Shown: positions 6,660-40,460 of the stretch, piece by piece | Layout of the letters: each line of letters opens with the position of its first letter | How positions within the stretch are numbered: the stretch's first letter is position 1 | NCBI RefSeq assembly: GCF_018977255.1 | Contig: NW_024704742.1 | Location: 40,116,001-40,180,000, forward strand | Direction of reading: 5' to 3' | Source of the DNA: Callorhinchus milii | Taxonomy: Eukaryota | DNA: 64,000 nucleotides | Notes under the pieces: generated by a model | What the model saw: only the letters and a program-made list of their open reading frames with translations | What the model was told of the DNA's origin: nothing | The model's database searches: none | Position numbers and translations under genes: made by a program

Positions 6660-6972
6660 ATAATAATCCTTGAATTTGATATAGCGCTTTTCACGTCTTC
6701 TAGACGTCTCAAAGCGCTTCACAGAATATACTGTAAAGTGAATTGACTCAATACTTGTGGGTGAAACACAGCAGCCATTTCCACACAGCAGTGTCCTACA
6801 AAGAGTCGTGGATTGAGTGACCAAATTATTATTGTTTTTTTCTTGAGGGCTTATTATCAGGCATGTGGAGTAAGGAAACTTTCCCAAGGTTTTATCCTGC
6901 TTGGAATTGAACCCAGGTCTCTCGCTTGCAAAGCAAGTACTCTAATTAACCACTGAGCTACGGGACTCTGTA
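6660..6972 (-). mobile_element. tRNA-derived SINE, near full length
   Basis: Reverse complement of the family seen at 7319, 11514 and 18170: tRNA head (GTAGCTCAGTGG...TTGCAAGCGAGAGACCTGGGTTCAATTCC) and tail GCGCTATATCAAATTCAAGGATTATTA. Confidence 0.85.
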
Positions 6973-7318: not shown

Positions 7319-7662
7319 GGAGTCCTTTTGCTTAGTGGTTAAGAGCACTCGACTCACAAGCGAGAGGACCTAGGTTCGATTCCCGGCACGGCGAAATATT
7401 GGGCAAATTTCCTTACTCCACATGACTGTTTACCTAGCAGTAAGTAGGAACCCAGTTGTTAGTCGATTGGTGAATCGCTTTTCCGAGGGCAATAAATCCT
7501 TAAAAAAAAATAGTCAATTGGTCACTCAATCCACTGCTGTTTCTGGGCTGCCATGCTTTACCCACAAAACATAGTCAATTCACTTTACAGTATATTCTGT
7601 GAAGCGCTTTGAGACGTCTAGAAGACTTGATAAGGCGCTATATCAAATGCAAGGATTATTAT
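7319..7662 (+). mobile_element. tRNA-derived SINE, full length with TSD
   Basis: Pol III A/B box head (GCTTAGTGGTTAAGAGC...GGTTCGATTCCC), body CTTGGGCAAG-like...GTTTACCTAGCAGTAAGTAGGAACCC, tail GCGCTATATCAAATGCAAGGA(TTA)n. TAATGT is duplicated at 7313-7318 and 7663-7668. Confidence 0.9.
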
Positions 7663-18169: not shown

Positions 18170-18489
18170 GTCCTGTAGCTCAGTGGTTAGAGCACTCGCT
18201 TTGCAAGTGAGAGACCTGAGTTCAATTCCAGGCAGAGGGCGAAACCTTGGGCAAGTTTCCTTACTCCACACGCCTAATAATAATCCCTCCAAAAAAACAA
18301 AAACAATAATAAATTGGTCATTTTTAATCTATGACTGTTTGTGGGACATTGCTGTGCGCAATTGGCTGCCGCGTTCGCCCGCAAATATAGTCAATTCACT
18401 TTACAGTGTGTTCTGTGAAGCGCTTTGGGACGTCCTCCCGACGTGAAAAGCGCTATATCAAATGCAAGGATTATTATTATTATTATTAT
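18170..18489 (+). mobile_element. tRNA(Ala)-derived SINE with 8-bp TSD
   Basis: GTAGCTCAGTGGTTAGAGCACTCGCTTTGCAAGTGAGAGACCTGAGTTCAATTCC (TGC anticodon loop) and a (TTA)n tail. TACTGGCA is duplicated at 18162-18169 and 18490-18497. Confidence 0.92.
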
Positions 18490-20229: not shown

Positions 20230-20533
20230 TTACTGAAACCTCTGCCTGGCTTTCTCCCTTTTCTGATTCCAGTAATCATCTCTAGACGATGTAGCGTTGT
20301 CAAGATCAGCACTTCTTCCTTTCTTGCTGACCTTTCTGGGTCTCTCAGCAGATCCTGCCGTTGGATTTCCATCCTCGGGTTTCACTTTTTGTGCAGAAGT
20401 ACAAGTGTCATCTTGTACCATTCGTCTTAAAATACTCAGATTTGATTCATAACGAGACCGTATGCTTTTCTTTATGACATCCACAATATGGACATCACAA
20501 TCAAACAAGACCTTTACAAATTCCAAGTATGCT
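20230..20533 (-). CDS. STC2: Stanniocalcin exon 4 (terminal coding exon)
   Basis: Acceptor ttcttttttcaacAG-type tract; reads (G)AYLEFVKVLFDCDVHIVDVIKKSIRSRYESNLSILRRMVQDDTCTSAQK...RQRFQ*, matching STC1 YYNRLVRSLLECDEDTV...ILQTDHC and STC2 ...FCTSAIQK. Confidence 0.9.
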
Positions 20534-23500
20534 CTGTTGAAAAAGAATTTTATATAAAAAAAGTTAGGTTCTACGGATCTTTGTAATTCATCCAGTACCC
20601 TTGAGAGAAAAACAAACGGTACATGTTCATAAAGCCCATGTTCTAAGGAAAGATGTAATGCAAGGATTAGGTACAAGATTCATAATATGAATGTACAAAA
20701 GAAACTAATCTTCAGGCAAATTTAAATAACTTGCAATTATAAAGCACCCTTCATGTAGGGTAACGTCTCAGACTGCTACAAAATGGGGTTGGATGCCAAA
20801 GAAAAATAGGAGGAGGGAGATGGGGAAGGTGACTATAGACATGATTGAAGAGAATAGGTTTTTAGGATTTAAAGATAAAGAGAAATAAAGACAGAAGGGT
20901 TAGAGGGAGATAGTTCCAGAGGTTGGGGGCATTGTAGCATAAAGCTCGGCCATTGGTGGTGTCAGAGAGAGCGGGGACATGCACCAGGTCTGGTGAGCGA
21001 CAGGAAGCAAGCAGAGGAGTGGAGAAGGCAATCACATTCAGACATTTGGAACTTGTTACTACTGCTTTTTACAGCTTCTAAATACTCCATAACACAGCAC
21101 ATTGAAAATATAATGTAGTCTCCTATATAATCGCAGTCACCTCTATCCAAGGTGCCTTCCTTCAGTCCAATGTAGGAACAAGGACCTTAACTTTATACAT
21201 TGCTTTGTTCCTAACTGTTCCTCTGTTGACTTGAAATTACTATTATGGAGGCCCAGAGCTTGATTAGTACTTCACTGCCGTGCTGCCATCAAAACCAATA
21301 TTTTTAAAGACTGATGAAGTTTCAACCCTAAAATGTTTTGATTTATTTTAAGGAGCTAGAAGTTTAAGATCAATTAACCTAATAAAATAAATACTGACTT
21401 GTATTATTGGCCAGATTTGCTTATTTCAGAGTAGCAAGTATTATATGGACAGACAAATATTTACTGCTGCACTGTAAAAATATTTAAAATTCCTACAAGC
21501 TTTAGTATAATTATATTGAAATGCAAATCCATACAAATAAAAAGTCTGTCCAACTGCCCTGCAATCATCAAATGGTAACATTTTATTTCCTCCAAGAAAG
21601 TTTAACAGTGGTAGTATCTAACTAGTCTAAAACTAATTTCCAAATTAAGAATTTCCAAAATGTTGCATTTCTTCAATGACAGTCTTAAAGCTAATATTCG
21701 GAGGATATCGAGACTGAGTTTTAATGTGCTGAGCATGTTATCTTCTGGAAACTTCAGCATTAGAAGAGCAATACCAGTTTCATTCTGGACGACACAGATT
21801 TCCAATTGCTAAAGAGAATATTGATATTACATTCCGTAAAGAGCCCAGTTTATAAAAATGCATCGCAGTTAACTCATCTTGGTAGTAATAATAATCCTCG
21901 CATTTGATATAGTGCCTTATCACGTCATTGAGATGTATCAAAGCGCTTCACAGGATGCACTGTAAAGTGGATTGACTGTATTTTGTGTGCAAAACGCGGT
22001 AGCCAGCTGTGCAAGCAGTGTCCCACAAACAGCCATGCAATGAGCGACCAATTTTATTTGGAGGATTCTCTTAAAGGGGCAGCACCCATTAATTCCAGCT
22101 GAATCAGAGGATAAACAAAATGTGTTCCTAAAATAAGTTATCAGCTCTCTTTAGATCGATGACATGCAGCTTTAATCCAACAGCTAAGGAGCCATGATTC
22201 GGAACCCCAAATGGTGAATATAGTGACACCTGTAACAGGTTCAGGTGGAGGCTTAAGTTGGACCCAGGCTTCCCAGGGTTGTGGAGGAGAAAACCTGCTC
22301 CTATTCCTTTACAGCACCCTCTACTGGTTGTACACGTGTGTGGCAGCCTGGTGGGGAAACTGCAGGCTCAGCTGTGATACTCTGGTCAGGGAACTGTTGA
22401 TACTCACTGCAAAGGCTCACACATCAGCAATGGCCACTTGGGACAGGGCACCAGAGGCTGATAAGCAATTGGGAAACCGCACCCTAGCAACAAGCCAGAC
22501 CAGGAGCAGAGGGGAGAACATTTGCCAACGGAGAGAATTTTAAAAATTGGACACATTAAATTGATTTAAAAAACTATAATTTTGGTCTTAGTCTAGGCAG
22601 GCACAGATGTTCTGCCTTCAAAGCTGGGTAAACTGGCCTTCCCCCATGAGCAACCATTAACGATTGCTTGAAATGCTGGTTAAGGAATGCTCAGCATTTG
22701 GAACACTCAGCATTGAATTTCACACTTTGCTATTTGCCAGGCACTGTGGAATCAGCTCAGAGGAACACTTTATGTACAAATGAAGGCAAAGGCCTTAAAG
22801 ATTTCTCTCTCACTTTCTCCTCTTCTCGTTCTCTTCCTCCCCAACGCCAAAATGGCATAAGGTGAGCTAATGAGAGAAAGGTGCACTTCTGATCTTTTGC
22901 TGAAGACTTCTTTCCCCCATTCTGTATCAAACCACCATGAGAAAAGCACCTCATTTACACAATCTACTCTGAAAAATATAGGAGGTGATACATGCGAGTT
23001 ATGGGAACATGAGACAGGATGTCTAACCGGGGCCTAAATGTTTCCTATAAAATTTGGAATCGCAATATGAGCTCTTCAAAATGTTTATAAAAGGTATTGT
23101 TTAAAAAATATTCAAGTCATAATGAAAAAACATAGCATGGTTATCTGGTAGCACAGTTTAGGCAGGTACAGTTGATATGATAAGTTAACTCCAATATATA
23201 GTTTTGTTGGGGACTTAATCTAAGAATGAAAGATGCATTTCTCTAGACTGTAGATGACCCAGTATGTACTTACCCATTTAACAGCAGATCATGTAAGTCA
23301 ATCATTTCTGCAAAAGCATTTACATTATCATGTGCTATGGCACAGATGTCAAAGTTCTGGTAACAATCCTTCTGCAGTTCAGAAAGGATTTCCTGTATTA
23401 CTGAACATCTGCGAATATTACAGCTGAATCTTGACTTAATCCCATTAGCATTACACTTCAGGAAGTCTTTGATAAACAGTTTTCCCTATTAAAAAAAGAA

Positions 23501-26500: not shown

Positions 26501-29500
26501 GCTAACATAAAGAAATGCAACACACTTATCACTCAATTGAAAATTCAGGTTACCTGAAAACTTTGGTCAGTATTCCACATCATTTCTCTTTTCCTCAGGG
26601 TAAAAACTCTGGAGATGGTTTCACAGATATCACCAGCATGATAGTAACTCACCCAGCAGGCTAGTCTTCAGTCAGGTCAACTATCTACACAAGTTTAATC
26701 CTTTCCACACTCAATAATTACACACAAATACAGGGTTCAATGATAGTAATGCAGAACAGAATCTCAACTGATTTACTCCATCTTAAGCCCAGAGACATGG
26801 GGCAATTGCAGCATCTTCACTCATTATAGCCAGTGTATATAGTCTAAGATGGCATTCCAATGGAGCAATATTTTGTATATCCGGTTCCTGAGCCAGAAGG
26901 GGCTGCAGTGCACCAGGGCACTGCTAATGACAGCACAGCCTGCCTGGCTCATCGGCTAGACCTGGAAGGGCAGACCAGTTATTGGGGGCAGGGAGTCATC
27001 CCACTCAGCTCCTGGTAACCCTGCAAGCCAAAGCCCTAATGGGTAGGGTGGTCCTAATTGGACAAGCAGCGGGAAAGCTTGCTAGACAGCAATATTAATG
27101 GCAAGCTACACTCTGGGGTCCCCACTGCAGATACAAAGTATAGAGTTTTGATTGTGTACACTGGTTAAATCAGTAAATGTAGATAGGTACTGATTTGACT
27201 CAAATTCATTTTGTACAATCACCGTGCTTTAAATTTCACTGATTACATTTCAGTTTTCACTACGAGATGCCCGTTGATAAATGTGACCGTTCAAATGTTC
27301 AAATTTCACAAGATTGATTCTTCCTCAACATCATTTCTTAATCAGTGCAAAGGAGGAACAAGTGTTACACAAGACATCAGCTCCAAGATGTATATAAATA
27401 AACACACTGCAGCAGACAACTTAAATCGCAATGCACGTTTGAAATCTCTAATACTCAAGACATGTTTACATAGTCATTTAAATATTTTACCTGTGCATCA
27501 AACTTCCCTGCGTTCTGAAGAAATATTCTGCAGACTTCATACAGGTTATGTATTTCACAAGTATGGTTTTCCAGACATTCAAAAACTGCACATCCCACAT
27601 CACCAGCACTGAGCAAACAGTTACTTATTTCAACTGTTGGATAAAATAGACATTTTCCTAATTATTTTGCATATTGGGCAAGTCAGCCCACAGGTTTAAA
27701 AAAAACAACTATTGCAATGCTTATGGGAAGAAGGGTGAATTATATAAAACATATTTAGCTAGCAGTGTGTTGGTCTCAATCTCAATGGGTTTAGCAGCAT
27801 CTGAAAGAGAAAAATAGGTCAGCACATCAGGTATATCCCTTCATTAGATGCGACACAACTGACCTGCTGTGCAACCTTTTTTATTTAAAAACAACTCAAT
27901 GGCCTTGGATAACAGCTGAATAAATCGCATGAACTCTTTTGTCATTCGAGCTCTACTCAAGTATCTGTCTCAACCATAGCCATCTTCTGTATAAACAAGA
28001 CGAGCAGCTGTGTTGAAATATGGTCTGTAGCACAGAACAGTCCACATCGAGGATCCATGTAAGCTACGGCAGATCGCAAATCCATTTGAATATATGGAGC
28101 TCTGTTTATTGAAGAGCGACATAAATCAGCAAAGGTCAAATGTTAAACTTAAAAGGGGCCAGGCACTCTTAAAAAAAGGAATACTCGGTTGCTCTAAAGG
28201 CAATCTGCGATCTATAATATCTGCTTCTGATGGCTGAGGGCTTGTGATCGCCGTTTAAAGTACATAATAGCACATTTCAACATAAACTGTGCATTTCCCC
28301 CCCACTCCCAGTGTCAACTGGAAAAAAACTGAGCTTTGTAAAGACAACAACTGGGTGATGCTCAGCATAAAACTAAAGGAAAATGAATAATAATATAATG
28401 CAGGTACTGATACAATAGATTTTTTTGTTTCTAGATTAAGTATTCTGTATCACAAGAATATATGCTATATAGCTAATTCACCTTGCGGTATATTCTGTGA
28501 GGCACTTTGAGACATCTCAACTACATGATAAGGCGCTATATCAAATGCAAGATTATTAATAATACAAAGGAATGGGGGGGGGGGGCAAGAGAAATCCTTC
28601 CAAAATAAAATACATGCCTAAAGTAAGAGGAAAACAAGCATGTTCGCTGTTTAAAAATCTGAACCACAGTTTCCATTAAACCTGCGCACAAACGATAGCA
28701 ATTTTTGCGCCATTGGTTACTCCCAAGAGGCTGGGATGGTTCTCCTTTTTAGAGCAGAGAAGGTTAAGAGGAGAGTTAATAAAGTTGTTTTTAAAATTTG
28801 GTAAAAGTAAAAAGGCGCAATCTCTGACAGGGTCACTTCACACACTGTCTCTCTCTCTCTGTCTGTCTGTCTCTCTCCACAAGCGGCTCCCATAACGACT
28901 CTCCTCTAACCCTGAGCCCAGCCACTCTCTCTCACTGACTTACTCTCTCACTGAGCCGCTCGCTCACTCTCACTGAGCCGCTCGCTCACTCTCACTGAGC
29001 CGCTCGCTCACTCTCTCACTGACCCGCTCGCTCACTCTCTCACTGACCCGCTCGCTCACTCTCCCACTGACCCGCTCGCTCACCTTTCCACTGACCCGCT
29101 CGCTCACTCTCTCCCTGAGCCGCTCACTCACTCTCTCCCTGAGCCGCTCACTCACTCTCTCCCTGAGCCGCTCACTCACTCTCTCCGAGCCGCTCACTCA
29201 CTCTCTCCCTGACCCGCTTACTCACTCTCTCCCTGACCCGCTCACTCACTCTCTCCCTGACCCGCTCGCTCACTCTCTCCCTGACCCGCTCGCTCACTCT
29301 CTCCCTGAGCCGCTCGCTCACTCTCTCCCTGACCCGCTCGCTCACTCTCTCCCTGAGCCGCTCGCTCACTCTCTCCCTGAGCCGCTCGCTCACTCTCTCC
29401 CTGACCCGCTCGCTCACTCTCTCCCTGAGCCGCTCGCTCACTCTCTCCCTGTGCTGCTCACTCACTCTCTCCGAGCCGCTCACTCACTCTCTCCCTGAGA

Positions 29501-30904
29501 CGCTCACTCACTCTCTCCCTGAGACGCTCACTCACTCTCTCCCTGAGCCGCTCACTCACTCTCTCCCTGTGCTGCTCACTCACTCTCTCCGAGCCGCTCA
29601 CTCACTCTCTCCGAGCCGCTCACGCTCACTCACTCTCTCCCTGACCGGCTCACTCACTCTCTCCCTGAGCCGCTCACTCACTCTCTCCCTGACCGGCTCA
29701 CTCACTCTCTCCCTGAGCCGCTCACTCACTCTCTCCCTGAGCCGCTCACTCACTCTCTCCCTGAGCCGCTCACTCACTCTCTCCCTGTGCTGCTCACTCA
29801 CTCTCTCCGAGCCGCTCACTCACTCTGTCCGAGCCGCTCACGCTCACTCACTCTCTCCCTGACCGGCTCACTCACTCTCTCCCTGAGCCGCTCACTCACT
29901 CTCTCCCTGACCGGCTCACTCACTCTCTCCCTGAGCCGCTCACTCACTCTCTCCCTGAGCCGCTCACTCACTCTCTCCCTGAGCCGCTCACTCACTCTCT
30001 CCCTGAGCCGCTCACTCACTCTCTCCCTGAGCCGCTCACTCACTGTCTCCCTGAGCCGTTCACTCACTCTCTGAGCCGCTCACTCACTCACTCTCTGAGC
30101 CGCTCACTCACTCTCTCCCTGAGCCGCTCACTCACTCTCTCCCTGAGCCGTTCACTCACTCTCTCCCTGAGCCGCTCACTCACTCTCTCCCTGAGCCGCT
30201 CACTCACTCTCTCACTGACCCGTTCACTCACTCTCTCCCTGAGCCGCTCACTCACTGACTCTCTCACTGACTCTCTCACTCACTCACTGACTGACTCTCT
30301 CACTCACTCACTGACTCACTGACTCTCTCACTCACTGACTCTCTCACTCACTGACTCTCTCACTCACTGACTCTCACTCACTCACTCTCTCACTGACTCA
30401 CTCTCACTCTCTCACTGACTCACTCTCACTGACTCACTCTCTCACTCACTGACTCTCTCTCTTTCACTCACTCTCTCACTGACTCACTCTCTCACTGACT
30501 CTCTCACTCTTTCACTCACTCTCTCACTGACTCACTCTCTCACTGACTCTCTCACTCTTTCACTCACTCTCTCACTCACTGACTCACTCACTCACTGACT
30601 CTCTCTCTTTCACTCACTCTCTCACTGACTCACTCTCTCACTGACTCACTCTCTCTCTCACTGACTGACTGACTGCCGCCGGTGTGTGTTGCTCACCTGT
30701 GCTGTGCACTGACAGCCGCACCTTGCCCTGCACAGAGCCCGAGCCTCCCCCTCCTCCTCCCCCTCCTCCTCCTCCACCACCTCCGCCGCCGGCAGAGCGC
30801 TTCTCCGGCCCCAGCTCACTGCCCTCCGACTCCTCTCCGGCCACCGCGTGAAAGCCGAGGAGCAGCGACAGGACGGCCAACCTCGGCGGCACCAGCAAAC
30901 CCAT
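20230..30904 (-). CDS. STC2: Stanniocalcin, STC2-like but divergent; 4 coding exons join(30904-30697, 27633-27491, 23485-23274, 20533-20230), 867 nt, 288 aa secreted glycoprotein
   Basis: All introns are GT-AG with matching phases (1, 0, 2). Internal exons are 143 and 212 bp as in vertebrate STC1/STC2. Signal peptide present, all 11 family cysteines present, conserved N-glycosylation site (NHT). Family assignment is secure; orthology to STC2 is not (see findings). Confidence 0.93.
22330..22515 (+). mobile_element. LF-SINE-like relic (3' half) in stanniocalcin intron 3
   Basis: GGCTCAGCTGTGAT...ACTCACTG..AAGGCTCACACATCAGCAATGGCCACTTGGG..AGG.CACCAGAGG resembles the LF-SINE consensus as recalled. 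Confidence 0.6.
23274..23485 (-). CDS. STC2: Stanniocalcin exon 3
   Basis: 212 bp, ttaatAG / GTaagt; GKLFIKDFLKCNANGIKSRFSCNIRRCSVIQEILSELQKDCYQNFDICAIAHDNVNAFAEMIDLHDLLLNG. Not in the supplied ORF track. Confidence 0.95.
24730..24997 (+). mobile_element. L2 LINE 3' end
   Basis: Nearly identical to 5370-5630 (AGGCTCTGGAACTCTATCCCCCAGTGCCTTC...GGGACGTCCTCCCGACGTGAAAGGCGCTCTATAAATGGAATC(TTG)n). Confidence 0.88.
27491..27633 (-). CDS. STC2: Stanniocalcin exon 2
   Basis: 143 bp, ccaacAG / GTaaaa; VEISNCLLSAGDVGCAVFECLENHTCEIHNLYEVCRIFLQNAGKFDAQ versus human STC2 AEIQHCLVNAGDVGCGVFECFENNSCEIRGLHGICMTFLHNAGKFDAQ. Not in the supplied ORF track. Confidence 0.95.
28925..30675. repeat. Minisatellite (24-bp unit CTGAGCCGCTCACTCACTCTCTCC and variants) grading into CACT/GACT/CTCT low-complexity repeat; stanniocalcin intron 1
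   Basis: Visible tandem array ~28945-30260 followed by (CTCA/CTGA/CTCT)n to ~30675. It explains the RERVSE and SLTLSL ORFs. Confidence 0.97.
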
Positions 30905-31410
30905 GTCCCTCCCCTCCTCCTCCCCGCAGCCCCGCAGCCCCGTGTGAGCCCGAGCCCCGCTCCCGGGGCGGCTTTACGCAGCGCTCCCCAACCACGTGAG
31001 GAGAGGCAGAGGCAGAGGGAGGACCTGAGGCACACAGCCAGGGCTCTGCCTCTCGCCCAATCACTGCCTCCTGCCCCCCCCCACAAGCCTGGCTCCCCCT
31101 CACAAGCTGGCAAGGCTGCCCACCCCCTCTCACCCCCTCTCACCCACCCCCACCCACACACCCACCCCCAGCTGAGCGCTTTTTACGGAGCGCGAGAGTT
31201 ACCCCCGCGCACGCGCCGCGTTTCCGCCCGGCGGGTCGAGCCCCGTGAACCCCTTCACTGGAGAAGCCGTAGCCACCGGCTCGGAAGATCGCCCTTCGGG
31301 TCGCGCCCATCTCCTCGGGGCCGGGTCGGGCGGCGTCTCGAGCGGACACCGTCCCGGCGCGAAGGGCAGCTCGGAAACGGCACGTTGTTGCCGTTGCTGT
31401 TGCTGTTGAA
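30670..31410. promoter_or_regulatory. CpG island covering stanniocalcin exon 1 and promoter
   Basis: Abrupt GC- and CpG-rich segment in an otherwise AT-rich, CpG-poor window. It spans the start codon and ~500 bp upstream, and contains CACGTG (30993-30998) and CCAAT (~31057). Confidence 0.8.
30697..30904 (-). CDS. STC2: Stanniocalcin exon 1 (signal peptide, poly-Gly)
   Basis: MGLLVPPRLAVLSLLLGFHAVAG signal peptide, EKRSA-G16-SGSVQ, then GKVRLSVHST (STC2 KGRLSLQNT). Donor CAG/GTgagc, phase 1, in frame with exon 2. Confidence 0.88.
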
Positions 31411-32904
31411 ACGAAACCCGTTTTGCCCAAAGAATACGCACCTCACGGTATATCCAGCGAAGCGCTTTGATACGTCTCGTCTACATGATGAGCCGCTATG
31501 TAAAAGTGAAAGGGTTATTACTGATATCATTAAAAGTTGGTTGTGCAGCAAGCAAATGAATGCCAACATGCCATAGTTAACTTTTGTAGCGTTCATCTAC
31601 AGAATGCACAGTCACTACACTTCACATATATCCTGGGAAGCATTTTGAGACACCCCACTTGATGTGGAAGACGCTACGTCAAATGTGAGGATTCTTATCA
31701 TTATAAAGTAAATAGTTTTGGATGGATATCGAGGTTTATTAATTAGGGAGCAGGTTTTATTTACGCAAAATAGGTCTTGTGTGGGGTTTAGAGTATATTT
31801 TTTCTCGAACGTTTCCAGACAATGTGAAACTGCTATTAAGAAAGCGTGCAAATGCTACGATGGCAATAGTCAAAAGTCCATCAGCAGTGAAGCCATTTTG
31901 AACGCTTTGTGTGGTTTGGGGCCCTATCTTCAGAAAGATGTTGAAGAGGATAGAAAGAAGAGCAATGACGATGGTTAGGACAATCTTCAAATTAGACCAT
32001 AAGATATAGGTCACTTTAATAAATGATGAGAGGCTGGCACACACAGGTGATTTTGACAGCAGACTATTTCACTTAGACTGTAAAAGGTTACTGGAGGTTT
32101 AAAATTAAAAAGCTTTAAGAAACGCCAGCGATTAACATTTTTTCCACACAGTTTAAAATACACGGAACAGATGCCAAACAAAAGTAATAAATAGTGTGCT
32201 GATTAACATCTTTTAATAAAATCAGAATCTGCTTAAGAGCAATGTTGGAGGATATAGTAGGTGCAGACCAATATGATACTTCACAGGACACCCATTTCTG
32301 TGTTGCCGTAGCTCAAGACCCAAAGGTTTCAGTATTGCTGGCGCCAGTTGTTTGGCGAGAAGAGACTAGTTTTGATTTAAGACTTTGAATCAGGGCTTTT
32401 GACTTGGGACTAAGATGAACTTTCCCCCAAGAAATAGAATTGGAGTGGTGGAGTCAACCAGCATTGAAAGGAACGTATCAAAGTCAATGTGGTAGATGGT
32501 CTGTGGAAGGAGTGAATGTGATGGGTCAAGTAACTTTTTCTCATTCCACATGTTTCTAGGATAGAAATGAAAGGAAGATAGCTCACACCAGTGTGTAATG
32601 ATCTCATAGCTTTACCAAAAACATTATGTTAAAATGCACACAATCACTTTCAGATATTTCCTTTTTTTTGAAAAAAAAGGTCTTCCTTTGCAAAGGATGG
32701 ATCTTTGCTGTGCTGCTAGTTTCTGTCATTCAGGGAGATAGAAACTGGAGGTATGAAGATCAGCATATTTTATGCTTTAGAGGACATCAATCTGAATTAG
32801 AAAAATGTTCAAAGCAAATCTACGTATGATATCATCTTGTACATTCAAGGGGCAAGTAGTAATATTTGAGAGCAGGGTAGCCTGACAGATGTGGACATCA
32901 GTGT

Positions 32905-33056
32905 CAACACCAGGAGTCAGGAGTTCTGATGAAGGGTCGTGGACCCGAAACGTTGACTCACTTTCCTTTCTCCATAGATGCTGCCTGACCTGCTGAGGGT
33001 TCCCAGTGACTTCTGTTTTTGTTTCAGACTTCCAGCATCTGCAGTATTTTGAGTTT
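32905..33056 (+). mobile_element. Short retroelement insertion (Penelope-LTR-like / retrozyme-like) with 13-bp TSD
   Basis: TGGACATCAGTGT occurs at 32892-32904 and 33057-33069, flanking a 152-bp insert that holds a hammerhead core and GATGCTGCCTGACCTGCTGAG...TTCCAGCATCTGCAGT. Confidence 0.8.
32921..32959 (+). ncRNA. Minimal type I hammerhead ribozyme motif
   Basis: GAGUU-CUGAUGA-A-GGGUC-GUG-GACCC-GAA-ACGU-U-GACUC: stem I GAGUU/GACUC, core CUGAUGA and GAAA, stem II GGGUC/GACCC, palindromic ACGU in place of stem III, GUU cleavage triplet. Confidence 0.7.
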
Positions 33057-33234
33057 TGGACATCAGTGTGACTGTGTAAATATATACCTGTGTTTTGACA
33101 ATTATTTCTTCTTCGCTCCCACTCCCCACCCCACCCATCTTAAACTATGTAAATGTTGATAGGAATTTAGCAGCAACCATTTGTTAGTCAATTGGCTTTT
33201 CTGCAGGTTTTTTTAAAAAAATTAAAATAAAAAA

Positions 33235-33407
33235 TGTTGGTCTCTCAATCCATGGCTGTTTGTGGGACACTGCTGTGTACAATTGGCTGCCGCATTTTGC
33301 CCACAAAATATAGTCAATTCACTTTACAGTGTATTCCGTGAAGCACTTTGAGACGTCTCAATGACATGATAAAGTGCTATATCAAATGCAAGGATTATTA
33401 TTATTAT
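33235..33407 (+). mobile_element. 5'-truncated SINE copy (representative of many)
   Basis: CTGTTTGTGGGACACTGCTGTG...GTCAATTCACTTTACAGT...TATCAAATGCAAGGA(TTA)n. Similar tails lie at ~385-510(-), 8240-8365, 14330-14440(-), 21885-22060(-), 35185-35293, 40725-40900, 44205-44335(-), 59510-59605 and 59990-60105. Confidence 0.85.
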
Positions 33408-34149
33408 CCTTCTACTGGACATAGCTTAATTGCCTTTTGTAATGTATTATTATTATCTATAAAATATATATTAACACCTTTACTTTTAATTCCATGTGTT
33501 TCAGAGCATTGATGAAGGGCATAAATTCTTCTGAAAACCTATAACAAATTGTGACTGTGCTGCTAAAAACAAACCTATAATTATAGTAGTTTCTTTATTT
33601 CAGTGAACAAAAAAAGTCAATGTTTCCCTAAACTTTATTGAATTAATTATGTCCTTGTGGTTTTGAAGTAATTCCAGCCAAGGTCCTAATTGGCTATTTT
33701 CTTTATAGATCCCATGATACTATTTTTAAAAAAGAAGGAAGGTTCTTCCAGTGTCCTGGCCAACAATCCTCCAGATAAATTAGTCTTTATTCACTTCATG
33801 ATTGCTTGTGCAACTTTGCTGCTGCACATGGCAACTACCTTTGCCTAGACAAAACAGTCACTGTACTTGATAATAATTATTGTGAAGCACTAAGACATGT
33901 TAAGGGTCTATATTTTCTTTAACTGTTCCACTGAGCTGTTGAATTTCAGGCATGATCTAAGGTTTAGAAGAGAATAAGTCAACAAGCCAACATCTGCCTG
34001 TTCAGTTGGACATTAAAGATTCCATGGCGCTGTTTGGAAAGAGAGGGAGTTTCTCCAGGTGTCCTGGCAACAAGAGCAGATCTTTAAATAAATATATTTT
34101 TAAAAGTCATTATTTTATTGCCTGATGGTATAAAGTAAATGCACCATAT

Positions 34150-36899: not shown

Positions 36900-37856
36900 C
36901 CCTGTTTGTAGTGATCTGCTCACTAGATGTTGATATTGACATCCTCGGGCTCACAGAAATCTGGCTGCCCACCCCGTCCTCCACATTGAAGCCTCCCCCA
37001 TCCCGGCTATACATTCCACCACACTCCCCGCCCCAACCATTACGGCAAGGGGGTGGCCCTCATCTCCCAAACCTCACTTAACCTATCCCCCTATTCCTCT
37101 GGCTGTTTCCCCTCTTTCGAGCACCTCACCCTCTACCATCGCTCCTCTCTGTCCTTCAAAATCCTCCTTGTGTACCATCCCCCCAAACCGCCTGGCCACT
37201 TCTTCACGGACATCTCTTTCCTCTCATCCCTGTCCCTCTGTACTGAACGCCTGCTCATCATGGGCGACTTCAACCTTTTTCAACTCCTGCCCCACTTCCT
37301 CTGACTTCACTGAGGTCCTTTTCACTCACCCTCCATATAAACTCCTTAACCTACAGCCGTGACCACTCGCTATACCTCATTATTCCCCATGGTTTAGATA
37401 TTTCCAGTCTGTCCATCACAAGGCCACCTCAGACAATTTCCTCATCTCCCTCTCCTCTCGCATCCCTCCCCCTCCATCAAGCCTTCCACCATCATTTTCC
37501 AGACATGGTAAAGGCTTCCCCCCCCACCGAGACCTTCACAAATGCCTTGTCATCCTCAGACCTCCTCTCTGTCTGGCCCTCCACTCACAGCAACCCTGAT
37601 GCAGCCGTCAAGCTGCTCCATGATCACCTCTCCTCCACCTTCAACTCTCTTGTCCACCTGAAATCCGGGATTGTCTGCAAACCCATCTGCTCCCCGGTAC
37701 CACTCTTTCCCCATTTTCAGGTTGCACCTGAAGACCTTCTTCTTCAACTGTGCCTATGGTCACATTCCCCTGGCTCGGCATCAGGCTCCAACATTGTTGA
37801 GCACTCTGGTATGATGGTCAGCATGGAGGGTGCTATATAAATGCAAGTTGTTGTAG
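36900..37856 (+). mobile_element. L2 LINE remnant: AP-endonuclease region joined to a 3' end
   Basis: DIDILGLTEIWL, ILLVYHPPK and LLIMGDFN APE motifs across frameshifts; ends GGTGCTATATAAATGCAAG(TTG)n. Confidence 0.85.
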
Positions 37857-38529
37857 ATGTCGTGTCATCTCACCCTATTGATGCCAAATCCTTCCAATTG
37901 TGTCTTTTTGTCGCCCCCCACAAATCGGTGTCCCCATATTACATGACAACCCCACACCTTTTCTGGGGGGCCAGTCACCACTGGAGAAAGGCACAACAGG
38001 GTCAGGAAGGAATTTACCAGCATAGAGTCATACAAGGAGAGCTGTCAGCTGGGTCAGACTGAATATATGGGAATTCAGGATATTTTCCAAGTGCCTCCGG
38101 AATGGTTCCTAAAGGCCATGTGAATGGCTCCCAATTTTTTTTTAAAACAAAAGATTCACTGAAAATACAGAAAGACACGATATTAATTGGGAAAAATAAA
38201 AATTTCTCTCAGGTTTGACTCATCTTCAGGGAGTAAAGGGCTCTGCTGAAATGCAAGGTCAGTTTAGTTGGAACAAAAAAAGTCATCAGCACCATTGTTG
38301 CAAAATCATCTACCTAGTAAATCATCTATAAAGGACAACTTGCATTTCTATAGTACCCCTCATGCAGGGTAGCCTCCTAGAGTGTAAATTAAATATGGTA
38401 TGCAAATTTGCAACCATCATAACTGAATTTGGAACATTGTAAGCCAGTCTTGTCTTGGGGAGTCCCAATCTACCATGCATTTTATACCGTCCAACTCATC
38501 TTTGGGAAATCTACCTGACTGTATTCGCA

Positions 38530-40460
38530 TTGACCTACAAAATGTCTGCTTCCTTTCTGACAAGGCTGTCGCCATCAACAACATCATCGTTGATGAAAAC
38601 ATCAATATCCTGTGGCTCACTGAAATCTGGATCACCCCAGGTGACACCTTCTCCCTAATTGAGGCCACACCACCTGGCTATACCTTCCACCATACCCCAT
38701 GTCCTAACCGCCGTAGCAGGGGTGTGGCCCTCATCTCCAGGTCCTCACTTGCCCTATCCCCCTACTCCTCCGGCTTATTCCCCTCCTTTGAGCAGCTTAT
38801 CCTCAACCATCCCTTCAATGTTTCCCTCAAAATTCTCCTGATTTATTGTCCCCCCAAATCCTCCCCCACCTTCATCTCTGACCTCCACCCTCCTAGCTTC
38901 CCTCTGCCTCTGTTCTGAATGTCTCCTCATCCTAGGCGACTTCAACCTGCACTTCATTCCATCGTGCTCTATCTCCACTGACTTCTCCTCTCTCCTTTCC
39001 CTGCATATCCATTCTGCCGCCCACATTTATGTCCACCCACTCGACCTGGTTATTACCCGCGGATTCAGTGTCTCAGACCTCACAATCACTCTTAAAGCTA
39101 TCTCAGATCACCATTCCATCTCTCTCTTCCCAGCTTCACTCTTTCCTCTCCCGCCACTCCCTTTACGAACCCCTCCAATTGGGTTTCCGTGCTGCCCACA
39201 GCTGGAAGCCGCCCTGGTCAAGATGACACATAACATTCTGTCCATCTGTGACCAGGGCTCCCTCTGTCTTCTCATCCTCCTCGACCTCTCTACTGCCTTT
39301 GACATTGTGGACCACTCTATCCACCTCCACCATCTCACCTCAACCTTCAAAGTTTTGTCCTTGAATCGTACAGATCCTATCTCTCACAGTGACTCCACTT
39401 TGTTTCCACAAACAGCTTCTCCTCCAGCCCCCACACCATCCCATGTGGCATTGCTCAGGGCTCTGTCCTCGCTCCTCTCCTCTTCAACCTACACTTGCTC
39501 CTTCTTGGTGACATCATCCGCAGATATGGGGTCAACTTTCACATGTACGCAGATCACACTCAACTCTATCTCTCTGCCTCCACCCTCGACTCCAGAACCT
39601 CTGATGTCCTAGCAGACTGTCTGTCAGACATCAAGTCCTGGATAAGAGCTAACTTTCTACAGCTGAACGTCAGCAAGACCAAGGCTCTCCTGATTGGCTT
39701 GTGCCAGTGTCTCCGCACCTCAGGCACTGGCAACATCTATGGATGCACACTCCACCTCACCAAGCGAGTCAGGAACCTTGTTCGACCCTCAACTGTTCTT
39801 TCTTCCCCATATCTGTGCCTTCCCCCACCTCTACAACATTGCCCGACTCCGTCACTGCCTCACTGCTCAGTCCACCAAAACCCTCAAATGTGTCTTCATT
39901 ACAATCAGACTCGACTATGCCAATGCCCCAGTTGTCGGCCTCCCCAACTCTTTCCTCCACAAGCTGCAGATCATCCAGTACTCTGCAGCTCATGTCCTCT
40001 CCCACACCAAGCTCTGTGACCCCATCACACCCACCTTCGCCTGGGTCCACTGGCTCCCCATCCCTCAGAGGATAGAATTCTAAATTCTCATCCTCCATGG
40101 CCTTGCCTCCACCTACCTCCCTGACCTGCTAACCCCTTATCAACCTATCCCCTCCCTCCGCTCAGCAGGCTCCGACCTGCTCCATGTCCCCCACCCAGCC
40201 TACCCCACCATCGGTAACCAGGCCTTCAGCCTCTTTGCCCCCATCCTCTGGAACTCCATCCCACATTCGCTTTGTCTCGCTCCCTCCCTTGCCTCCTTCA
40301 AGGCAGCCTCAACATCCTCCTCTTTGATCATGCCTTCGGCCACCCCCTACCCTCCCTGATAACCTCCCCTGCTCGGGTCCTAATCCCTGACTGTTCAGCG
40401 CCTTGGGATGTCCTCCCGACATGAAAGGCGCTTTACAAATATAATTTTGTATTGTATTTG
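38530..40460 (+). mobile_element. L2 LINE, internally deleted ORF2 (APE + RT) and 3'UTR
   Basis: NILWLTEIWI, LIYCPPK, LGDFNLH, LILLDLSTAFDIVDH, FHMYADHTQLY, NFLQLNVSKTK, RLDYANA, HWLPIPQRIEF motifs, then the L2 3' end with a (TTGTA)n tail. Many frameshifts. Confidence 0.93.

Follow-up and report, generated by a model that had tools for sequence, protein, structure and literature searches.

Is a short insertion that carries a hammerhead ribozyme a mobile element in its own right or a piece of a larger one, and what does the ribozyme have to do with how it arrived? This question is raised by a locus in a 64,000-nucleotide stretch of the Callorhinchus milii genome (contig NW_024704742.1, positions 40,116,001 to 40,180,000; the whole stretch is called the window below), where a 152-nt insert with a minimal hammerhead motif lies between two copies of the 13-mer TGGACATCAGTGT. 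We conclude that the insert is very probably a very short 3'-end copy, about 135 nt of element plus 17 nt of filler, of a canonical endonuclease-bearing (EN+) Penelope-like element (PLE) with the known minimal hammerhead ribozyme (min-HHR). The window copy is thus an ordinary instance of a well-described kind of element. A first-pass annotation of the window had proposed a solo, non-coding unit of PLE type that arrived by retrotransposition, and the link to PLE open reading frames (ORFs), the hallmarks of insertion and the min-HHR features all bear this out; its description of a 152-bp mobile insertion stands as regards the length of the insert, but not in the sense of a separate element, since what was inserted is a PLE 3' end with filler attached.

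The insertion can be divided as follows, insert coordinates being counted in the text such that position 1 is window position 32905.

32892-32904, no strand: left copy of the target site duplication (TGGACATCAGTGT), from the sequence and a scan for direct repeats
32905-32921, plus strand: junction filler of 17 nt at the 5' end of the insert; family matches mostly begin at position 18/19
32921-32959, plus strand: minimal type I hammerhead motif, from the sequence, its conservation in the family and the feature list of PMC4209133
32960-33056, plus strand: PLE 3' terminal region, up to the usual genomic 3' end as given by arm ends in sampled copies
33057-33069, no strand: right copy of the target site duplication, its first two bases (TG) assignable equally to the end of the element, from the sequence and the family ends

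The perfect 13-bp target site duplication reported in the first-pass annotation is confirmed to the base: TGGACATCAGTGT occupies 32892-32904 and recurs at 33057-33069, with 152 nt between (32905-33056), and no other perfect direct repeat of at least 13 nt lies in 31900-34100, the five other direct-repeat families there being imperfect. The right edge of family homology coincides with the right-hand copy of TGGACATCAGTGT. After ...GTTT most family members continue with TG(T), and homology extends to position 154; because the element usually ends in ...TTTTG, the last two bases of which coincide with the start of the right repeat, the duplication is better given as 11-13 bp. At the other end, all 39 of the 39 long matches other than the window copy start at insert positions 11-20, never at 1, and almost every match in a search with the 5' part begins at 17-19. 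As family matches start at about 18/19, the templated part therefore runs from 18/19 to 152-154, and the first 17 nt (32905-32921) are private, or nearly so, to the window copy. Within this filler the 7-mer CAGGAGT stands twice in tandem (32911-32917 and 32918-32924), a duplication that reaches into the element. Contigs from other samples of the organism bridge the left junction in three of three cases (X11, X13 and X14, with 0, 0 and 3 differences), and one contig (X11) covers the right junction; run X1, which we guess to be RNA, covers the repeat part only. No joint that skips the insert, as expected of an empty-site allele, was seen among 15 of the 61 joints listed, these being contig data from which rare alleles could escape.

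The assignment to a PLE comes from the repeat family as a whole. A first look gave at least 1920 candidates in the 991.5-Mb genome, the 40 that were scored being 93-98% identical to the insert, and the proposed count of copies genome-wide returned 2285 exact occurrences of the 22-mer at the family's 3' end, against 0 for its reversed control; the 64-kb window itself contains no second family copy. Longer copies extend 0.8-1.7 kb upstream, with the longest reach at about 1.7 kb, and it is here that a linked Penelope reverse transcriptase (RT)/GIY-YIG ORF, anticipated from the first reading of the sequence, was found. In a Pfam scan of six ORFs from two degraded copies, GIY-YIG was the sole match: the ORF of one longer copy (L033) scores 23.7 bits against PF01541 (cut-off 22.6) and stops about 300 nt upstream of the point where the hammerhead aligns. 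RT-like ORFs lie farther upstream than this. They include a 155-aa piece with 150 scored genome matches and, in copy L051, a 358-aa open frame. Of the longer proteins in the database, 124 match this frame at E <= 1e-5; most of them carry PF00078 and many also PF01541, and one of these homologues, P0009, contains RVT_1 (291-479; 29.4 bits against a cut-off of 29.6) and GIY-YIG (708-751; 25.0 bits). RT followed by a C-terminal GIY-YIG is the defining architecture of canonical PLEs (PMC8557442, PMC4209133), and this order is found in the longer copies, outside the window.

The manner of insertion points the same way. PLE insertions are characterised by heavy 5' truncation, an adjacent inverted copy that is itself 5'-truncated, and a 30-40-bp tail at one end (PMC8557442), and all three are seen in the family. 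Our sample comprised the first 80 of 100 listed places, chosen solely by the exact 3' 22-mer and mapped onto a long natural copy. Truncation falls inside the last ~145 nt in 71 of the 80 copies, and nine reach past position 10. An adjacent inverted arm (a partial copy at most 60 nt from the 5' end) accompanies 39 of the 80; the outer ends of these arms lie at 112-122 in 27 of 39 cases, whereas direct arms finish at 152-156, an offset that amounts to a tail of about 36 nt on one side only. The tail, a concept taken from PMC8557442 and PMC11167929, thus consists of the last ~36 nt of the PLE 3' region, and the alternative inner end used by the inverted arms of other copies maps to about 33016-33026 in the window. 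In the Poseidon element PAc of Anolis carolinensis, reverse transcription has two internal start sites, which serve on either DNA strand; the tail is what lies between them, and both strands are cut and extended (PMC11167929). The two 3' ends of the present family, 36 nt apart, match the two start sites seen in vitro for this Anolis PLE. Frequent inverted arms are what is expected if both DNA strands prime. Finally, flanks share a word of 8-14 nt in 8 of 33 simple copies compared with 19 of 633 shuffled pairs, and in several copies with such shared words the duplication is separated from the element by 8-25 nt of filler. The window copy, with its duplication of 11-13 bp and its filler of 17 nt, is typical of the family. 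Candidate sources for that filler were rejected: it resembles the element's reverse complement no more than chance allows (scores as high came from 55 of 1000 shuffles and from 13 of 123 control windows), and of two partly matching places one is an inverted-arm junction and the other a PLE arm inside an unrelated repeat resembling a short interspersed nuclear element (SINE).

A sequence of events can be proposed on this basis. The PLE protein, with its RT and C-terminal GIY-YIG, would have cut the target with an 11-13-nt stagger, as a related element does in vitro, and reverse transcription would have started about 100 nt past the hammerhead, at the outer internal start site, which coincides with the usual genomic 3' end. 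Copying would then have gone on for some 135 nt and reached the beginning of helix I, where copies preferentially end - most likely a preference that exists because many template RNAs begin there. The 5' junction was sealed, as the sequence shows, with 17 nt of filler, and repair of the stagger left the duplication.

The ribozyme motif itself reads as follows in the window, all parts being taken from the sequence of the plus strand.

32921-32925, plus strand: 5' strand of helix I, GAGTT
32926-32932, plus strand: box CTGATGA
32933, plus strand: extra base A, unpaired between A9 and 10.1
32934-32946, plus strand: helix II with its loop, GGGTC/GTG/GACCC
32947-32949, plus strand: GAA (GAAA being 32947-32950)
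32950-32953, plus strand: palindrome ACGT
32954, plus strand: H17, a T; the predicted cut is at 32954/32955
32955-32959, plus strand: 3' strand of helix I, GACTC

This is a type I arrangement: helix I of 5 bp with one G.U pair, the C3-A9 box, helix II of 5 bp with G10.1-C11.1, then G12-A14, the run A15.1-C15.2-G16.2-U16.1 without a loop, and U at H17. The full core with stems I and II, and a stem III reduced to the palindrome ACGU, is therefore present exactly as first described. The copy also shares what distinguishes a min-HHR, namely CUGANGA and GAAA boxes in type I order, a palindromic 15.2-16.2, an H17 other than G, and a helix I of 4-5 bp. Its one sign of CpG decay is at N7, a free core position, where the family has CTGACGA and the window CTGATGA; the motif is otherwise intact. 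A hammerhead that lacks a helix III of its own would be expected, from published work, to cleave only by pairing of two copies, and then weakly or with the help of protein: min-HHR motifs do not cleave as monomers (PMC4209133, PMC11167929), and their dimers cleave weakly (PMC4209133). Because head-to-tail short units are absent from the family, only a second RNA or a full-length tandem could supply the pairing partner. The ATG within CTGATGA opens a frame that stops after 19 codons. The window copy has an intact motif, but it codes for nothing and lacks a partner anywhere in the 64 kb, and it is most likely an inert passenger.

How the motif varies among copies was assessed from 44 ungapped instances at 40 of the 80 loci. 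H17 is T in every one of them. The first box survives unchanged in 29 and ACGT in 26, while GAAA and the full set of five helix II pairs are each kept in 33; losses in the boxes are mostly at CpG sites. N7 is C in 31 instances, T in 11 and A in 2, so the source read CTGACGA and its copies have been decaying at CpG after insertion. The same explanation had been suggested for the cleavage triplet, GUU being seen as a decayed GUC, and fails there: in addition to the constancy of T at H17, a second subfamily (12 fetched copies plus L074) has GTT followed by A, and with A as the next base there is no CpG context at H17. The two subfamilies differ at five positions of the 37-nt motif, namely 10.1 and 11.1 (G-C to A-U), two bases of loop 2, and 1.1 (G.U to A-U), with boxes and ACGU unchanged. 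In an alignment of 40 rows (29 from the sample and 11 from subfamily 2, the indel rows L070, L082 and L158 having been dropped), pairing is retained in 93.5% of helix II cells, 73% of helix I cells and 83.3% of the whole structure, against 46% or less over all pairs when partners are slid. The pair 10.1-11.1 is G-C in 25 rows, A-U in 11 (all of subfamily 2) and G-U in 4; the inner four pairs of helix I form in 29-40 of the 40 rows, the fifth in 5.

If templates were cut by the ribozyme before being copied, the 5' ends of copies might betray it. They do not cluster where the cut is predicted: 5 of the 80 copies end at 49-53, around the cut site, with 3.1 expected (P 0.20), so there is no enrichment. 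At 17-21, on the other hand, lie 16 of 80, where again 3.1 are expected (binomial P 5e-8), and 11 of the 39 inverted arms have their inner end at 15-20; other 5' ends are spread across the whole length. Since the 5' ends cluster at the 5' edge of the hammerhead and not at the cut site, we infer that many templates begin at helix I and are copied uncleaved. Smaller clusters of 5' ends are present at 27 (five copies), 31-32 (four) and 56 (three), for example in L058, L101, L116 and L122; at such places, within or just past the ribozyme, copying may have paused or switched template.

A bolder version of this, which we offer tentatively and would not yet back over its negation, is that the spectrum of 5' ends records the RNAs that were copied, with a start by transcription or processing at 32921-32925 on uncleaved RNA, such that copies of ~135 nt would be full-length cDNAs of a leader RNA rather than random truncations. 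If true, the leader RNA would be bounded by this 5' end on one side and by the two internal RT start sites on the other, and the ribozyme would lie at the very start of the template without being the maker of that end, which bears on what PLE hammerheads are for. In any case, the preference constitutes genomic evidence against processing of templates by the hammerhead before copying, in agreement with in vitro work, and the family, with its thousands of copies, is a clean natural data set for such questions. Clustering of 5' ends at the edge of the ribozyme as opposed to its cut site is a modestly new point; a search of the literature found no report of such a peak, which does not by itself establish its absence from the literature.

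It could then be asked whether the motif is a working ribozyme at all, or is kept for a reason other than cleavage, as a protein-binding or start-site structure or simply as a passenger. Besides the lack of clustering at the cut site, this finds favour in experiments: the activity of metazoan min-HHRs in vitro is low (PMC4209133). In PAc, insertion in vitro is independent of cleavage, as ribozyme mutants insert normally, and no RNA-seq reads are reported to start or stop at the cut site (PMC11167929); PLE clades without hammerheads, moreover, proliferate well (PMC8557442). Yet across our two subfamilies the boxes, the base after A9, the palindrome and a cleavable H17 have stayed constant while paired and loop positions changed, and the Anolis motif does cleave when, and only when, the element's protein is present, an activity that depends on C3 and G8, being lost in mutants of either and partly regained in the double mutant (PMC11167929). 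We accordingly regard retention without cleavage as unlikely, though a good deal less so than the other alternatives considered here.

A second alternative sees the ~135-nt unit as a non-autonomous element in its own right, either a 'mini-PLE' comparable to a SINE or a single retrozyme monomer, with masters of its own and a borrowed PLE enzyme. The peak of 5' ends at 17-21 is what a unit of defined length would give, and animal retrozymes have been argued to derive from the pseudo-long terminal repeats (pLTRs) of PLEs (10.64898/2026.07.22.740005). However, short (n=19) and long (n=9) copies are set apart by no diagnostic column except one noisy site, mean pairwise identity is similar within and between the two groups (0.886, 0.879 and 0.872), and the 5' ends outside the peak are spread over the full length. 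The search for tandem dimers, which the first-pass annotation had suggested, was also negative: the head-to-tail units that define retrozymes gave 0 matches with one pattern and 1 with the other, the latter with an unrelated 22-nt spacer, set against 2285 3' ends. A separate element is hence very improbable. The idea that ordinary repetitive DNA has produced the 13-bp repeat and the hammerhead-like string by coincidence, as the commonness of short direct repeats (five imperfect ones within 2.2 kb) and the absence of a hammerhead in Rfam scans might suggest, can be dismissed, as the repeat sits exactly at the end of homology of more than 2000 copies and the motif is common to the family and to a second subfamily.

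Returning to our preferred account, a short PLE 3'-end copy with a min-HHR, a number of observations weigh against it. As to the element, the 358-aa frame matches RVT_1 with E 4.8e-4, which is below the cut-off, a sequence search of PDB with the RT ORF gave chance-level matches and no RT-type polymerase, and among the copies recovered there is no full-length element or pLTR-ORF-pLTR unit, the 5' part of the element being unseen. As to the insertion, no source was found for the 17-nt filler, and base 18 varies among short copies, which is at odds both with a simple start at A18 and with a G derived from a cap; that an RNA 5' end at 17-21 causes the clustering is something that we infer from the copies. 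As to the ribozyme, self-cleavage is a prediction from sequence. Rfam scans of the whole window at the gathering threshold, and of 32850-33110 at E <= 10, returned no hammerhead, their only matches being tRNA-like SINE heads and three weak chance matches; the comparison with Hammerhead_1 that had been proposed as a check thus came out negative, and the absent helix III hairpin is a likely explanation. The fold of the 152-nt RNA is no more stable than those of shuffled sequences (z -0.44). The predicted fold with helices I and II has -12.5 kcal/mol, compared with -13.6 for the minimum free energy (MFE) structure. A cofold of two copies is uninformative on a double hammerhead because the MFE dimer is the trivial full duplex of identical hairpin RNAs. 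The whole motif is kept in 14 of the 44 instances, and variation in the family is mostly decay. Helix I has just 3-4 bp in most copies. The covariation in the stems that had been called for does exist, as the compensatory change from G-C to A-U at 10.1-11.1 between subfamilies, but it is a single such pair and a single event, counted 11 times.

The insert lies next to a stanniocalcin gene, the parts of which are listed here.

27485-27640, 23273-23494 and 20392-20550, minus strand: stanniocalcin exons (Pfam PF03298)
30638-30904, minus strand: putative first coding exon, a signal-peptide-like ORF that starts at 30904 and has a run of 16 glycines, assigned as an exon on these features

A Pfam search with the ORFs at 29175-31596 gave no match to stanniocalcin exon 1. 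The insert had been placed 2 kb upstream of the stanniocalcin start; measured from the putative start at 30904 the distance is indeed 2.0 kb, with the correction that the gene is on the minus strand, so that the two are in opposite orientation. The impact on the locus is probably small, the insert being one among thousands of inert PLE fragments, and nothing tested suggests a regulatory role. In 29175-30279 (minus strand) there are several long open frames with many weak matches to unrelated low-complexity Pfam families, which suggests a tandem or low-complexity repeat within the first intron of stanniocalcin.

Other repeats in the window are of different kinds. At 33225-33300 is a second repeat with a copy number far above that of the PLE (its summed contig depth is ~4-5x the PLE's), probably a SINE; its ...GGGACACTGCTGTGTACAATTGGCTGCC... 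region recurs, in opposite orientation, in the flank of the PLE fragment L147. Matches to the tRNA model of 33-41 bits at 6892-6967 (minus), 7321-7394 (plus) and 18173-18235 (plus), the last cut at both model ends, resemble one another in body sequence and look like the heads of tRNA-derived SINEs, not tRNA genes. A degraded long interspersed nuclear element covers 36990-40016 (plus), with weak Exo_endo_phos matches at 36990-37301 and 38427-38915 and RVT_1 above the cut-off at 39393-40016 (41.5 bits).

How does the family compare with known hammerhead systems? With Hammerhead_1 (RF00163) and the other Rfam hammerheads it shares, as read from the sequence, the same catalytic boxes, without a match to any of the models. 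It resembles the non-LTR (non-long terminal repeat) retrozymes of animals in being a small, non-coding type I hammerhead unit related to PLE pLTRs, and these too are presumably mobilised by PLE enzymes (PMC7229834, 10.64898/2026.07.22.740005); retrozymes, however, are defined by head-to-tail tandem units, of which there are none in the family. In structure it is like the min-HHRs of metazoan PLEs described by Cervera and de la Pena in 2014 (PMC4209133), which are of type I, have the ACGU palindrome at 15.2-16.2 as their only helix III, a base between A9 and 10.1, G10.1-C11.1, and a helix I of 4-5 bp without a defined loop 1, and which number in the thousands, most of them solo and attributed to truncated PLEs, with pairs of motifs on opposite strands. 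Helix II has 5 bp here as against 7-8 bp in the Schistosoma families of that paper, and the host here is another vertebrate.

With PAc there are differences in detail: its ORF starts within the hammerhead, whereas here the hammerhead is ~300 nt downstream of the endonuclease ORF, and H17 is U here and C in the printed PAc template (PMC11167929). The PAc hammerhead region is printed with ...CCAUAGAUG... (PMC11167929), resembling CCATAGATGCTGCC after the hammerhead in the window (32970-32990), a likeness that may reflect deep conservation or coincidence. In other respects the two elements agree (PMC11167929): in both there is ACGU at helix III, no sign of templates cut at the ribozyme, a hammerhead ~70-105 nt upstream of the genomic 3' ends, and a choice of two alternative ends 30-40 nt apart.

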